A stretch of DNA of 64,000 bases, taken from NCBI RefSeq assembly GCF_022846255.1, contig NZ_AP025682.1, one strand, 5' to 3'. Position 1 is the first letter of the stretch. Each line of letters opens with the position of its first letter. The stretch is from Escherichia coli (GTDB lineage Bacteria; Pseudomonadota; Gammaproteobacteria; Enterobacterales; Enterobacteriaceae). Shown here one piece after another: positions 22,801-28,800 of the stretch. The position numbers were made by a program.

Positions 22801-25800
22801 GCTGGAAGGTGTTGTGGCAAGCACCATTGAGGTTATTAAAAAAGGCAAATAAGTAGTGACTACATTAACGCTTGTTTTAACAGCAGTAGGGTCTGTTTTA
22901 CTGCTGCTGTTTTTAGTCATGAAGGCGCGTATGCACGCTTTCCTGGCTTTAATGGTGGTGTCCATGGGGGCTGGCCTTTTTTCCGGTATGCCGCTCGATA
23001 AAATCGCAGCGACGATGGAAAAAGGGATGGGAGGCACCCTCGGCTTCCTGGCGGTGGTTGTCGCCCTGGGAGCCATGTTTGGTAAGATCTTACATGAAAC
23101 CGGCGCGGTCGATCAGATTGCCGTCAAAATGCTCAAATCCTTCGGTCACAGCCGCGTGCATTATGCCATCGGCCTTGCGGGGCTGGTTTGTGCGCTACCG
23201 CTGTTCTTTGAAGTGGCGATTGTTCTGCTGATTAGCGTTGCTTTCTCAATGGCGCGCCACACCGGCACGAACCTGGTGAAGCTGGTAATCCCATTATTCG
23301 CCGGCGTGGCGGCAGCGGCTGCGTTCCTGGTGCCTGGGCCAGCGCCAATGCTGCTGGCATCGCAGATGAACGCCGACTTTGGCTGGATGATCCTGATTGG
23401 CCTGTGCGCGGCAATTCCGGGAATGATTATTGCCGGGCCGCTGTGGGGTAATTTCATCAGCCGCTACGTGGAGTTGCATATTCCTGACGACATCAGCGAA
23501 CCGCATCTCGGCGAAGGCAAAATGCCGTCCTTCGGATTCAGCCTGTCGCTGATCCTGTTGCCACTGGTGCTGGTGGGGCTGAAAACCATTGCCGCGCGTT
23601 TTGTGCCAGAAGGCTCTACCGCTTACGAATGGTTTGAGTTTATTGGTCATCCGTTTACCGCGATTCTGGTTGCTTGTCTGGTGGCGATTTACGGTCTGGC
23701 AATGCGTCAGGGTATGCCAAAAGACAAAGTGATGGAGATTTGCGGTCACGCGCTGCAACCGGCGGGGATCATTCTGCTGGTGATTGGTGCGGGCGGCGTG
23801 TTCAAACAGGTGCTGGTTGACTCTGGTGTCGGTCCGGCACTGGGCGAAGCGTTAACCGGCATGGGCCTGCCGATTGCCATCACCTGCTTCGTGCTGGCAG
23901 CTGCAGTGCGCATCATTCAGGGTTCTGCCACCGTTGCCTGTTTAACGGCGGTGGGACTGGTGATGCCGGTCATTGAACAACTGAACTACTCCGGTGCGCA
24001 AATGGCGGCACTGTCGATTTGTATCGCCGGTGGTTCGATTGTTGTCAGCCACGTTAACGACGCGGGTTTCTGGTTGTTCGGTAAATTTACCGGCGCGACC
24101 GAAGCCGAAACGCTTAAAACCTGGACCATGATGGAAACCATCCTCGGCACTGTCGGTGCCATCGTTGGGATGATTGCGTTCCAGCTGTTGAGTTAATTAC
24201 TGCGACAAATTACTGCGAGCTTGCTCGCAGTAATTCATTTCTCTTTTCTCCTGTCTTCATCTTTTTGATCTCTCTCGCAAAAAGACCGGAACATTATCCG
24301 TTCTAATCACTGTGTTAACGGACGAGGGAGAAGATGATGGAGAAACACGGAGCTGAATTGCTGTTACAGCGGATGTTAAGTAACACCAGCGCTACTTTCA
24401 GGGAAGGGCAATGGGAAGCTATAGATGCGGTGGTTAATCAGCGGCGAAAACTACTGGTTGTACAGCGCACCGGCTGGGGGAAAAGTGCCGTGTACTTCAT
24501 CGCCAGTAAAATCTTCCGCGATCGCGGCGCTGGCCCGACAATTATCATCTCTCCTTTGCTTGCCCTGATGCGTAACCAGGTTGCCGCCGCTGAACGGTTA
24601 GGTATTACGGCTGAAACGTTGAATTCTACAAACAGGGAAGAATGGCAGCGCATTAGCGATAAGTTGCTGCAAGGTGGCGTAGATTGTCTGCTGATTTCAC
24701 CTGAACGGTTGGCGAATCAGGATTTTCTTGAAACGGTTTTATATCCAGTCGCTGACCGCATCGGTTTACTGGTGGTCGATGAGGCGCACTGCATCTCTGA
24801 TTGGGGCCACGATTTCCGCCCGGATTACCGACGTATATTAGATATTTTGCGCCAACTGCCTGCGAATACCCCTATTCTGGGTACAACCGCGACAGCGAAT
24901 AACCGTGTCGTTGAGGATATCCGTCAGCAATTGGGTGACATTGTGATTCAGCGTGGAACGCTGGCTCGCGAAAGTTTGGCGCTTGATGCCTTAGTCTTAG
25001 GAGAACAGTCATCCCGTCTGGCATGGTTAGCAACGGTTATCCCTCAGTTTTCCAAATCGGGAATTGTTTATACCCTGACGACTCGCGATGCTGAACTTGT
25101 CGCCGAGTGGTTAAGGAAAAATGGTATCAGTGCATTTGCTTATTACAGCGGCGTGACTTGTGAAGGTGCGGAAGATTCTAATACTGCCAGGGAGTATCTG
25201 GAGCAGGCACTGCTGGCAAATAAAATCAAAGTGCTGGTCGCGACGACGGCATTAGGTATGGGATTTGATAAACCTGATTTAGGCTTCGTCATTCATTATC
25301 AGATGCCGGGGTCTATTGTCGGTTACTACCAACAGGTGGGGCGTGCCGGGCGTGCTATAGATTCCGCAGTTGGCATATTGCTTTGTGGTGGTGAAGACCG
25401 CGCTATTCATCAATTCTTCCGTGAAAGCGCCTTTCCTGCGGAGGCGCAAATTCATGAAATACTCAACGTACTTAGCGAGAATGACGGTCTTACCCTACGA
25501 GGCATTGAACAACGGACGAATCTTCGTTATGGGCAAATAGAAAAAGCACTGAAATTATTGGTAGCTGAAAATCCATCGCCTGTGGTGTATACCGAGAAAT
25601 TATGGCGCAGAACTATCGTCAGTTTTTCTCCTGATCATGAACGAATTAACCATTTGATGAATCAGAGAAAAAGTGAGTTGGCAGACGTTGAAAGCTATAT
25701 CACGACCAAGGAGTGCAAAATGCAATTTCTGCGCCGCGCACTCGATGAGCCAAGTGCCGAACGTTGTGGTAAATGTAGCAGTTGTCTTCAGCATCCGCTG

Positions 25801-28800
25801 TTGTCGCCCGACATTGATAGCGGCTTACTCCATGCGGCAAATTTATTTATTAAACACGCTGACCTGCCATTAAATCTCAATAAACAGGTGGCATCTGGGG
25901 CTTTTACGCAATACGGATTTAAAGGGAACTTGCCTGCGGGTTTACAAGGATCTACGGGGCGAATCCTTTCTCGTTGGGGAGATTCCGGGTGGGGAAAGCA
26001 GGTAGCACAGGAGAAAAAAACGGGGCGCTTCAGTGATGAACTGGTGGAGGCATGTGCGGAAATGGTTCGCCAACGCTGGAATCCGCATCCTGAACCAACC
26101 TGGGTATGCTGCGTTCCTTCATTAAGGCACCTCGACCTGGTTCCTGATTTTGCCCGGCGACTGGCGGCGAAACTTGGCTTACCTTTTATTGATGCCATTG
26201 AAAAAGTCGTGGACAATCCACCGCAGAAAATGCAGCAAAACCGTTTTCACCAGTGTCAAAATCTCGACGGGGCGTTTGTGATTACCCCTCCTTTGATGCC
26301 AGGTCCGGCGTTGCTGGTTGACGATATCGTGGATTCTGCATGGACGCTGACAGTTCTGACAGCACTGTTACGCCAGGCAGGTTGCCTGACGGTTTATCCT
26401 CTTGCCCTTGCTTCTACCTCGGTAAAAAATTGATGAATCTTTCAGCCAATGCTCAAGCAACTCTCCTGCTAACCAGCGATTTTTCTCGCGCGGCGGCGAG
26501 TGAGTATAAACCTCTTAGTAATAGTGAATGGGGGAAGTTTGCATTATGGCTGAAGCACCAACGTATCAGTCCCGCCGAGCTTCTGGTGCCGCAACCGCAA
26601 GAGAAACTTACAGGCTGGAGCGATCCGCGTATTTCTCAGGAGCGAATTCTTGGCTTGCTGGCGCGTGGTCATAGTCTGGCGTTGGCTGTAGATAAGTGGC
26701 AACGCGCCGGTTTATGGATCTTAACCCGCGGAGATGCCGATTATCCCGTTCGCTTGAAAAACCGATTGCGAACAGATGCACCTCCCGTTTTATTTGGCTG
26801 CGGGAATAAAGCATTACTGCAAGCGGAAGGTATGGCGATTGTTGGCTCGCGAGATGCTCCGACTGACGATTTGCGCTATACCCAACAACTGGCCGCGAAA
26901 CTGGCCCAACAGGGGATTTGCGTTATCTCTGGTGGTGCGCGAGGTATTGATGAATGTGCAATGGCCTCGGCTCTGGAGGTCGGGGGAACTGCCGTTGGCG
27001 TATTAGCTGATAGCTTGTTAAAAACGAGTACGTTAGTGAAATGGCGTGAAGGGCTTATAGCAGGCAACCTGGTGTTGATTTCGCCGTTTTACCCAGAGGT
27101 ACGTTTCACCGTCGGCAATGCGATGGCGCGGAATAAATATATTTATTGCCTTGCTGAAAGCGCAATGGTTGTACGTGCGGGAATGACCGGTGGAACGATA
27201 ACCGGGGCGATGGAGGCATTAAAACATCAGTGGCTGCCCATGCAGGTTAAACCAAATCAGGATATGCAATCAGCCAATTCACGATTAGTAGAAAATGGGG
27301 CGTCATGGAGTGCTGAACAGGCTGAGAATGTGACGATCAGACTGCCAGACGTTCCTGGGCTGATGTATGACAGAGCACTCCGTAACGCTCAACCAGAACT
27401 GTTTTCGCTGCACGAAGATGACGCAAATTACGCAGTAATGCCCGCGCATACCCCTGTCGATTTTTATCAACTCTTTGTGGCGGAACTGGCGATCCTTGCA
27501 AAGGAATCGATAAGTATTGAAAGGCTGGCGTCTTGTACTGGTTTAACCATCGAACAAATTAGTGTGTGGCTGAACCGCGCAGAAGAAGAGGGAAGGGTTA
27601 TCCGATTGGGCGAAGGTCATTATCAGTTCAGGTAATAAAACAGGTGCCGCGTCTGGTTGTGTGCAACACCTGTTTGAACCTTACCCCTTCATCCACATTC
27701 GAATGCCGTCGAGGAACATCTGAGTTGCCATCATCACCAGAATCAATCCCATCAGGCGTTCAAGTGCGTTCACCCCTTTCTCGCCCAGCAGACGTAAAAA
27801 TAGCGAAGACTGTAGCAGGATGACAAAGGTGCCGCCCCAGGCCAGCAGCAGAGCAATCACCAGATGTCCCATCTGATTCGGGTACTGGTGAGACAACAAC
27901 ATCAGCGTGGCGAGAATAGTCGGCCCGGCGACTAACGGAATTGCCAACGGCACGATAAATGGCTCTTCACCTGCCGGAAGCCCGCTGCTATTTCCTGAAG
28001 CGCTGGGGAAAATCATCTTAATGGCGATCAGAAACAGAATGATGCCGCCAGAAATGGAGACGGTTTCTGCCCGCAGGCTAAGAAATGCCAGAATTTTCTC
28101 TCCCGCAAACAGGAACACCAGCATCACAAGGAGAGCAATAAGCAACTCTCGCACCATGATTGCCCGCCGTCTTTTCGGTTCAGTATGTTTCAGTACGGAC
28201 ATGAAAATAGGTAGGTTTCCGAGCGGATCCATAATCAGGATCAATAAAACTGTTGCAGAAATGATTTCATTCATAACTCAAATTCCCTGATAATTGCCGC
28301 GGACTTTCTGCGTGCTAACAAAGCAGGATAAGTCGCATTACTGATGGCTTCGCTATCATTGATTAATTTCACTTGCGACTTTGGCTGCTTTTTGTATGGT
28401 GAAAGATGTGCCAGGAGGAGACCGGCACATTTATACAGCACACATCTTTGCAGGAAAAAACGCTTATGAAAAATGTTGGTTTTATCGGCTGGCGCGGTAT
28501 GGTCGGCTCCGTTCTCATGCAACGCATGGTTGAAGAGTGCGACTTCGACGCCATTCGCCCTGTCTTCTTTTCTACTTCTCAGCTTGGTCAGGCTGCGCCG
28601 TCTTTTGGCGGAACCACTGGCACACTTCAGGATGCCTTTGATCTGGAGGCGCTAAAGGCCCTCGATATCATTGTGACCTGTCAGGGCGGCGATTATACCA
28701 ACGAAATCTATCCAAAGCTTCGTGAAAGCGGATGGCAAGGTTACTGGATTGACGCAGCATCATCTCTGCGCATGAAAGATGACGCCATCATCATTCTTGA

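Follow-up and report, generated by a model that had tools for sequence, protein, structure and literature searches.

The two genes between gntU and yhgN in an Escherichia coli chromosome: very probably the known rqlHI (PsyrTA) operon, an old and fast-evolving resident of this site

The genes gntU and yhgN are convergent neighbours in Escherichia coli K-12, and in some E. coli chromosomes about 3.5 kb of DNA with two further genes lies between them. This raises the question of what the two genes are and whether they came to this place recently. We addressed it in a stretch of 64,000 nt of E. coli DNA (assembly GCF_022846255.1, contig NZ_AP025682.1), referred to here as the window, whose coordinates are used throughout. 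An earlier sequence-only reading had treated the module as an anonymous two-gene insertion; it is in fact the published rqlHI operon, also called PsyrTA. We conclude with considerable confidence that the segment is this known two-gene, toxin–antitoxin (TA)-like operon of phage-defence type, and that it is an old resident and a fast-evolving accessory locus of this site. The operon itself, its TA behaviour, its absence from K-12 and its listing as a defence system were already known, and rqlHI is annotated in thousands of genomes.

The features of the locus are as follows.

22856-24196, plus strand: gntU, gluconate transporter gene, left core flank (open reading frame (ORF); named gntU in K-12, CFT073 and Rb-23)
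24195-24220, plus strand: tandem 13-mer (AATTACTGCGACA / AATTACTGCGAGC), in which the 5' arm of the terminator hairpin is repeated (repeat analysis)
24208-24245, plus strand: hairpin of gntU resembling an intrinsic terminator (terminator scan; dG -18.3, z -3.95)
24246-24336, plus strand: rqlHI leader, presumed promoter region (from conserved leader blocks)
24337-26433, plus strand: rqlH, or psyrT, toxin gene, 698 aa (PADLOC PsyrT, NCBIfam, Pfam)
26433-27635, plus strand: rqlI, or psyrA, antitoxin gene, 400 aa (PADLOC PsyrA, Pfam, PDB)
27636-27680, no strand assigned: rqlI-yhgN spacer with a hairpin at 27638-27676 (folding; a hairpin is present at every orthologous locus)
27681-28274, minus strand: yhgN, gene for a membrane protein of the MarC/NAAT family, right core flank (ORF; K-12 comparison)

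The variable segment is bounded by the TAA stop of gntU (24194-24196) and the stop codon of yhgN (27681-27683, minus strand). The interval from stop to stop, 24197-27680, measures 3,484 bp and holds two co-oriented ORFs. Matches to K-12 MG1655 and to APEC O1, a B2 strain, break right past the gntU stop and restart at the yhgN stop; both strains are empty at this site and carry a 56-bp spacer instead. The sequence-only reading had taken gntU and yhgN to be adjacent and convergent in K-12, which the MG1655 annotation confirms, and the two-gene module that it placed between them was borne out, with slightly corrected coordinates and with K-12 lacking the segment.

Two in-frame start codons, ATG at 24334 and ATG at 24337, open rqlH, and RefSeq and the literature both take the second, which gives the 698-aa protein. 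RqlH matched the PADLOC PsyrT profile with E=0 and 1064 bits, its residues 3-698 covering positions 4-687 of the 689 in the profile. Its N-terminal part is the RecQ-family superfamily-2 helicase core that characterizes the PsyrTA toxin: NCBIfam recQ_fam scored 250.9 bits (cutoff 219.8), Pfam reported DEAD (5e-25), Helicase_C (4e-13) and, weakly, RecQ_Zn_bind (1.4e-3), and the helicase motifs are intact (Walker A GWGK49S, D148EAH and the Zn-binding cysteines C460, C477, C480 and C483). The closest solved structures are the cores of E. coli and other RecQ proteins, over residues 5-356 only, with E. coli RecQ (1oyw) aligning to residues 5-348 at 6e-53. The C-terminal phosphoribosyltransferase (PRTase) domain of such toxins was recognized from the PsyrT match, which runs to position 687 of 689, from a weak Pfam Pribosyltran match (E=0.0058, residues 606-687) and from the acidic phosphoribosyl pyrophosphate (PRPP)-loop motif LLVDD663IVDSAWT. 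RefSeq names a truncated C-terminal fragment of rqlH in strain NRZ94505 'ComF family protein'.

The second gene, rqlI, occupies the position of the DprA-like antitoxin of PsyrTA, directly downstream on the same strand and overlapping, its ATG sharing one base with the rqlH TGA (TGATG, 26431-26435). RqlI matched PADLOC PsyrA at 1.4e-202, with residues 1-400 on positions 1-397 of 398, and PADLOC ShosA at 6e-27. It consists of a DprA-like Rossmann/SLOG domain (approximately residues 89-293; Pfam DNA_processg_A 2e-50 and SLOG LDcluster4) and a C-terminal region resembling a helix-turn-helix, and its PDB matches are DprA structures and ShosA (9vzo/8zva). RefSeq starts rqlI at ATG 26340, which yields 431 aa and a 94-nt overlap with rqlH. 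This start is probably an over-extension by 31 codons; we prefer ATG 26433 because the resulting 400 aa fit the PsyrA profile, agree with the published length and fall within the 394-403 aa of the orthologues from other genera, which overlap rqlH by 4 nt.

The operon was studied by Russell & Mulvey 2015 (PLoS Pathog, PMC4670107) in the extraintestinal pathogenic E. coli (ExPEC) strains F11, CFT073 and 536. In MG1655, which lacks both genes, cells expressing RqlH alone filamented, induced SOS and lost viability. The toxicity required the PRTase domain, as tested by deletion of residues 509-690 or by D663A, and was worsened by the helicase mutations K49A and D148A. RqlI, described as 400 aa, co-immunoprecipitated with RqlH and rescued its toxicity, reverse-transcription PCR in F11 revealed co-transcription of the two genes, and RqlI was needed for gut persistence and contributed to fitness during colonisation of the gut and the host (PMC4670107). 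The window pair is close to identical to that of ExPEC. In CFT073 it also lies between gntU and yhgN, with 99.7% (RqlH) and 100% (RqlI) amino acid identity to the window; the lengths of 698 and 400 aa, the toxin-first order and the gene overlap are shared, K49, D148 and D663 stand at the same numbering as the residues mutated in F11 RqlH, and nothing of substance differs. The window sequence appears compatible with operon status, having the overlap, a single leader and terminators on both sides. In the main text of PMC4670107, gntU and yhgN have 0 occurrences, and Citrobacter synteny, the replacement junction and E. coli occupancy are not described there.

Comparison with related systems places RqlHI with PsyrTA. 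The Pseudomonas syringae orthologue was described as the TA pair PsyrTA by Sberro et al. 2013, and Millman et al. 2022 counted PsyrTA (=RqlHI) among the TA systems that protect against phage. Both window components gave full-length profile matches, and the toxin is a RecQ-like helicase-PRTase followed by a DprA-like antitoxin. In ShosTA, a PRPP-dependent PRTase toxin perturbs purine metabolism and a DprA-like antitoxin senses single-stranded DNA (ssDNA) and RecA. RqlHI shares with it the DprA-like antitoxin, the PRPP-binding PRTase toxin and the combination of filamentation and DNA damage. ShosT, however, has no helicase domain, whereas RqlH is a helicase-PRTase fusion whose best profile is PsyrT; a stand-alone PRTase toxin of the ShosTA kind is thus not what the locus encodes, and only its antitoxin resembles ShosA. 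ShosA moreover acts via RecA and ssDNA without binding ShosT directly, whereas RqlI co-immunoprecipitates with RqlH, and sequence comparison detected no resemblance between the PRTase region of RqlH and solved ShosT structures. Canonical RecQ shares its helicase core with RqlH, and RqlI matches DprA structures over its Rossmann domain, but both proteins score far under the NCBIfam equivalog cutoffs (RqlH 293 bits against 640 for RecQ; RqlI 101 bits against 191 for DprA). In RqlH, the HRDC and winged-helix region is replaced by the PRTase, and the rqlHI locus is accessory, not core.

A working model can be drawn from these comparisons. Free RqlH PRTase would be genotoxic in a manner dependent on D663 in the PRPP pocket, as published for the near-identical ExPEC proteins, and would be restrained both by RqlI binding and by the helicase activity of RqlH itself. 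On the pattern of PsyrTA and ShosTA, phage infection may disturb the DprA-like antitoxin, either through ssDNA and replication intermediates or through shut-off of host expression. The freed toxin would then damage nucleotide or DNA metabolism, and the infection would be aborted. For the trigger step of RqlHI, ShosTA may serve as the best available model.

To determine how widely the segment occurs, we ran megablast with positions 23700-28200 against 5,426 complete E. coli genomes, with 24250-27630 as the query for the segment alone. The longer query matched 5,424 of the 5,426 genomes; 1,641 covered at least 80% of it and the rest only 22-23%, corresponding to the flanks. The segment itself was present in 1,650 genomes (30%), always on the chromosome and almost always at one place, the extra places in a few genomes being the result of disruption by an insertion sequence (IS) or transposon. 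The gntU-yhgN site of E. coli is therefore essentially biallelic, either empty or holding rqlHI. The comparison of empty and occupied sites that the sequence-only reading had called for thus gives 30% occupied and 70% empty genomes with junctions at both stop codons, and the module is far from being present in essentially all E. coli, the outcome that would have overturned that reading.

Searches of mobile elements gave a different picture for this allele and for its wider family. No rqlHI was found in the INPHARED phages, where one 54-nt match at chance level was the only hit, and this allele was absent from all 72,556 plasmids searched. The only plasmid copy of the pair, 66% identical in nucleotides, is on the IncFIA/FIC conjugative E. 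coli plasmid NZ_OX030731.1 (L106, 2634-12713), nested in a type I restriction-modification (R-M) operon in the order hsdM-hsdS-[RecQ-like-DprA-like]-hsdR and next to an IS3-family element. This is a typical defence-island context, and it indicates that the family can travel on mobile elements; the chromosomal rqlHI allele has no sign of recent travel on them. In a scan of genome contigs, relatives among the matches listed (at least 600 stretches) were 45-65% identical and came from many phyla.

Several occupied genomes have a damaged toxin gene. In O157:H7, rqlH (Z1486; L003, 2137-4261) has been hit several times: at least three ORFs remain of it, and its PRTase-coding part contains a 29-bp tandem duplication. 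The rqlI gene of O157:H7 is intact. In NRZ94505 (L008, 1-4000), the 5' 1.5 kb of rqlH has given way to an ISEcp1-blaCTX-M-15 transposition unit that also carries a WbuC gene and a Tn3 remnant; a PRTase fragment and rqlI are left. NZ_OZ040267.1 has an IS1 inside rqlH, and in one JGI contig the gene is split into ORFs of 442 and 238 aa. Loss of the toxin with retention of the antitoxin would be expected of a TA-like module. PsyrTA is already included in surveys of E. coli defence repertoires, which report it as enriched in phylogroup E2. Presence calls by defence finders may overstate functional PsyrTA, the phylogroup of O157:H7 being reported as enriched and yet its rqlH being a pseudogene.

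We then asked how the empty and occupied states relate to each other. The 56-bp empty spacer has a terminator hairpin of its own (CCCGGTAG..CTACCGGG) and resembles neither end of the occupied segment nor the rest of the window. A simple deletion as the source of the empty allele was rejected: blastn-short of the K-12 spacer against the window and all occupied loci returned only chance 9-11-mers. The empty allele does not itself look young, because the K-12 and APEC O1 spacers differ at 5 of 56 positions. Because the spacer is unrelated to the module ends, the occupied and empty states are best read as replacement alleles, neither an insertion with a duplicated target nor a clean excision. In APEC O1 the single-nucleotide polymorphism (SNP) profile is B2-like up to both junctions, with a divergent 1-kb patch only inside gntU (22.5-23.5 kb), and it contains no clear recombination tract across the site of the kind that import of the empty allele from another phylogroup would leave. 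The gntU of APEC O1 (L100, 19217-20497) is annotated as a pseudogene with an internal stop, and the patch (window 22500-23500, 45 mismatches) was probably imported by a short recombination event beside the empty site.

The segment has none of the hallmarks of a mobile island or integrative element, that is, a mobility gene, an attachment site or flanking repeats. Repeat analysis found no terminal inverted or direct repeats bracketing it, a tRNA scan found no tRNA gene in the whole window, and the annotation of the near-identical regions of CFT073 and APEC O1 lists neither an integrase nor a transposase for 20 kb to each side. The sequence-only reading was right that no integrase, transposase or tRNA lies nearby. 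It had also pointed to a short direct repeat at the gntU stop; the repeat (AATTACTGCGA) is real, though its coordinates were off by one and its length is 11 nt, with exact copies at 24195-24205 and 24208-24218, 13 nt apart. As a target-site duplication it was rejected: both copies are at the left end, and one is a tandem copy of the hairpin arm. The repeat is specific to E. coli and absent from the leaders of Citrobacter and the other orthologous loci.

In composition the module stands somewhat apart, and the AT bias of its codon usage, given earlier as an uncomputed impression, was confirmed. The segment is just slightly lower in GC content (0.495) than the 10-kb flanks (0.528). The difference is clear at third codon positions (GC3), where rqlH has 0.467 and rqlI 0.464, as against 0.57-0.64 in six neighbouring genes, and the codon-adaptation index, referenced to the window, is 0.60-0.62 for rqlHI against a mean of 0.69.

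The age of the locus can be judged from its divergence within and beyond E. coli. Relative to the window, the O157:H7, EC488 and TUM18780 loci have nucleotide identities of 93-97% in rqlH and 98-98.8% in rqlI, compared with 97.6-98.0% in gntK-gntU and 98.5-99.3% in yhgN-asd. Between lineages of E. coli, the module has diverged at least as far as its flanking genes. In a collection of 5.8 billion proteins, the nearest RqlI cluster outside that of E. coli itself was 72% identical, followed by others at 57-64%. All the 57-64% relatives whose contigs reach the neighbouring genes, namely C. werkmanii, C. freundii and four enterobacterial contigs, hold the pair in the same gntU-yhgN slot and share the order yhhW-gntR-gntK-gntU-[rqlH-rqlI]-yhgN-asd-glgB; the one exception is locus L093, which has no called yhgN gene and retains a matching 37-residue remnant. 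The 72%-identical relative is on a 3.4-kb contig on which only yhgN is visible beside the pair.

At these orthologous loci, the flanking proteins are about 87-98% identical to those of E. coli, RqlH 68-74% and RqlI 57-64%. The gntU-rqlH leader is 139-144 nt long and alignable at all of them. The gntU terminator hairpin is kept in all occupied alleles across genera (95.8% of cells paired) and covaries: four pairs have changed on both sides, the covariation score was reached by 0 of 500 shuffles, and slid controls stayed far below it. Pairwise distances of module and flanks correlate (r=0.93-0.96 for all pairs; r=0.66-0.78 for the 33 distant ones), the module evolving at about twice the flank rate. 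The same groupings appear in module and flanks, with the two Citrobacter loci together, L094 with L096, and the E. coli alleles together. The simplest reading is that rqlHI has descended with this neighbourhood since before the split of Escherichia and Citrobacter, evolving at the high rate usual for conflict genes and being lost or replaced in many lineages. The E. coli polymorphism presumably comes from loss or replacement, reshuffled by homologous recombination via the conserved flanks. For this site, 'old presence/absence (replacement) polymorphism' is a fitter description than 'insertion', and the polarity that the latter word implies is probably wrong. Recent gain is argued against by the within-species divergence, the orthologues in the same slot and the co-divergence with the flanks.

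A recently acquired islet, brought into the lineage of this strain by horizontal transfer without an integrase and placed in a gntU-yhgN spacer that had been empty ancestrally, would account for the absence of the segment in K-12 and in 70% of E. coli genomes, for a GC3 about 0.13 below that of the neighbouring genes and for an empty spacer unrelated to the module ends. The family does move horizontally, to judge from its 45-65% identical relatives over many phyla among the matches listed and from the distant copy on a conjugative plasmid. Such an islet should not, however, show rqlH identities between phylogroups down to about 93-95%, as diverged as the flanks or more, nor the same slot occupied by orthologues in Citrobacter and other contigs whose leader is homologous and whose hairpin covaries, nor correlated distances of module and flanks; and with no RqlI cluster above 72% identity, among the 5.8 billion proteins, besides the one that contains the E. 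coli protein, no recent donor is visible. We regard a recent event as improbable and largely refuted already. A shade less probable still is that rqlHI is a housekeeping-type module for repair, recombination or competence, an auxiliary RecQ with a DprA mediator and no role as a TA or defence system. The N-terminal half of RqlH is a bona fide RecQ-family helicase, RqlI has a DprA fold, ComF-like PRTase and DprA domains are both tied to natural transformation (discussion of PMC4670107), and one native E. coli host showed no phage protection. Against this stand the toxicity and SOS induction caused by RqlH alone and their rescue by RqlI, a dispensable and polymorphic locus, repeated inactivation of the toxin gene with rqlI spared (O157:H7 is an example), the fast evolution of the two genes in comparison with core genes, a paralogue located inside a type I R-M operon, and phage protection by the homologous PsyrTA.

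Several points nevertheless weigh against our own conclusion that rqlHI is an old, defence-type resident. Anti-phage activity has been shown for other PsyrTA homologues, whereas native PsyrTA of E. coli NILS69 gave no detectable protection against the tested phages, either by deletion or by expression in K-12 (10.1101/2024.12.20.629700); for the present allele such activity is putative. Expression of the NILS69 system in K-12 carried a growth cost (10.1101/2024.12.20.629700). Given the colonisation phenotype, a physiological role of RqlI is also possible. The PRTase assignment, a putative one, comes from the weak Pfam match, the profile and the literature, and sequence comparison matched no solved structure to the C-terminal 199 residues of RqlH. 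As to age, the low GC3 could reflect an earlier foreign origin, the outgroup loci are few, and either the occupied or the empty state may be ancestral, the empty allele not being a clean deletion product. At this site in other genera, a record labelled Salmonella has a spacer of 309 bp, Cronobacter has a Fic cassette, and a Citrobacter-like contig has a bhsA-like gene in place of gntU; these spacers are unrelated to each other and point to no one ancestral state.

The same interval also holds other small cassettes. In Cronobacter sakazakii (L103, 4595-5694) it contains an 87-aa ORF and a gene for a 249-aa Fic-domain protein, a VbhT-like TA toxin (PADLOC candidate PDC-S04). In one of the rqlHI-bearing enterobacterial contigs (L097, 7204-10372), four extra genes lie between rqlI and yhgN, encoding an AIM24/TIGR00266 family protein, a hypothetical protein, a metallophosphoesterase resembling cyclic-nucleotide phosphodiesterases and a DUF4440 protein; none of the four matched PADLOC. 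The site thus behaves as a small-cassette hotspot in several genera. A published map of E. coli hotspots scored islands of up to three genes as 'empty', and its main text contains neither gntU nor yhgN, so the site is probably not listed there. We tentatively propose, at somewhat short of an even chance, that small TA or defence cassettes across Enterobacteriaceae use the convergent-terminator spacer of gntU and yhgN as a conserved slot that needs no integrase. In Escherichia, Citrobacter and relatives, rqlHI would have diverged there together with its flanks, at about twice the rate of the core, and the E. coli alleles would be a long-lived polymorphism swapped by flanking homologous recombination. 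If this is true, small two-gene islets may be systematically overlooked, falling below the size threshold of hotspot maps. A TA or defence operon that looks inserted relative to K-12 can be old and vertically co-inherited without mobility genes, which calls for caution in K-12-based island calling. The finding itself adds little to what was known of the operon; the caution on island calling, the small-cassette site, the O157:H7 pseudogene and the rqlI start are modestly useful side results, and the cross-genus synteny and the conserved CRP-like motif are further points of minor note.

Both hairpins that the sequence-only reading had placed at the ends of the segment (24208-24245 and 27637-27675) were found, with small coordinate corrections. 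The left one has a perfect stem of 12-13 bp (24208-24220/24223-24235; the 12-bp version encloses a 4-nt loop) followed by a T-rich tail. The right one forms a 9-bp stem on the plus strand (27638-27646/27668-27676; z -1.8) and, on the minus strand, 13 pairs followed by the U-run UUUUAUUA (dG -24.2, z -3.8). Because the minus-strand fold is the stronger and the U-run follows it, this hairpin is probably a bidirectional terminator and would fit yhgN, on the minus strand, better than rqlI only. The right-end hairpins of the orthologous loci are not conserved in sequence. An Rfam search found no known RNA family in the leader or the spacers at E<=1.

In the leader, a CRP-like motif, TTTGA-N6-TC(G/A)CA, at 24264-24279 is conserved across genera, reading TCGCA in E. 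coli and TCACA in Citrobacter. It is followed by a -10-like TCTAAT at 24302-24307 and a GGGAG Shine-Dalgarno sequence. The CRP-like pair is centred about 42 nt upstream of the start expected after TCTAAT, which would correspond to class II CRP promoter geometry. The motif was found by eye, and its E. coli version has two mismatches, at which about 50 chance occurrences per window are expected; its weight comes from cross-genus conservation only. A generic sigma-70 scan of the leader passed no strong promoter.

Elsewhere in the window, between ggt and yhhY, about 2.7 kb present in CFT073 and APEC O1 (yrhB, yrhD, yrhA and a tssD/Hcp-family gene) are missing, with the alignment break at 18360/18418. 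GC3 of the other core ORFs is nearly always 0.54-0.73; apart from one terminal ORF, only the fimbrial island (39.7-49.1 kb) falls lower. This low-GC block (39702-49129, between glgP and glpD) has a GC content of 0.37-0.48 and GC3 of 0.28-0.45, and in composition it stands out as an island far more clearly than rqlHI does. The annotations of CFT073 and APEC O1 place a chaperone-usher fimbrial operon and hypothetical genes there; at 45.5-46.5 kb APEC O1 differs from the window by 228 mismatches per kb, and its fimbrial genes are frameshifted.

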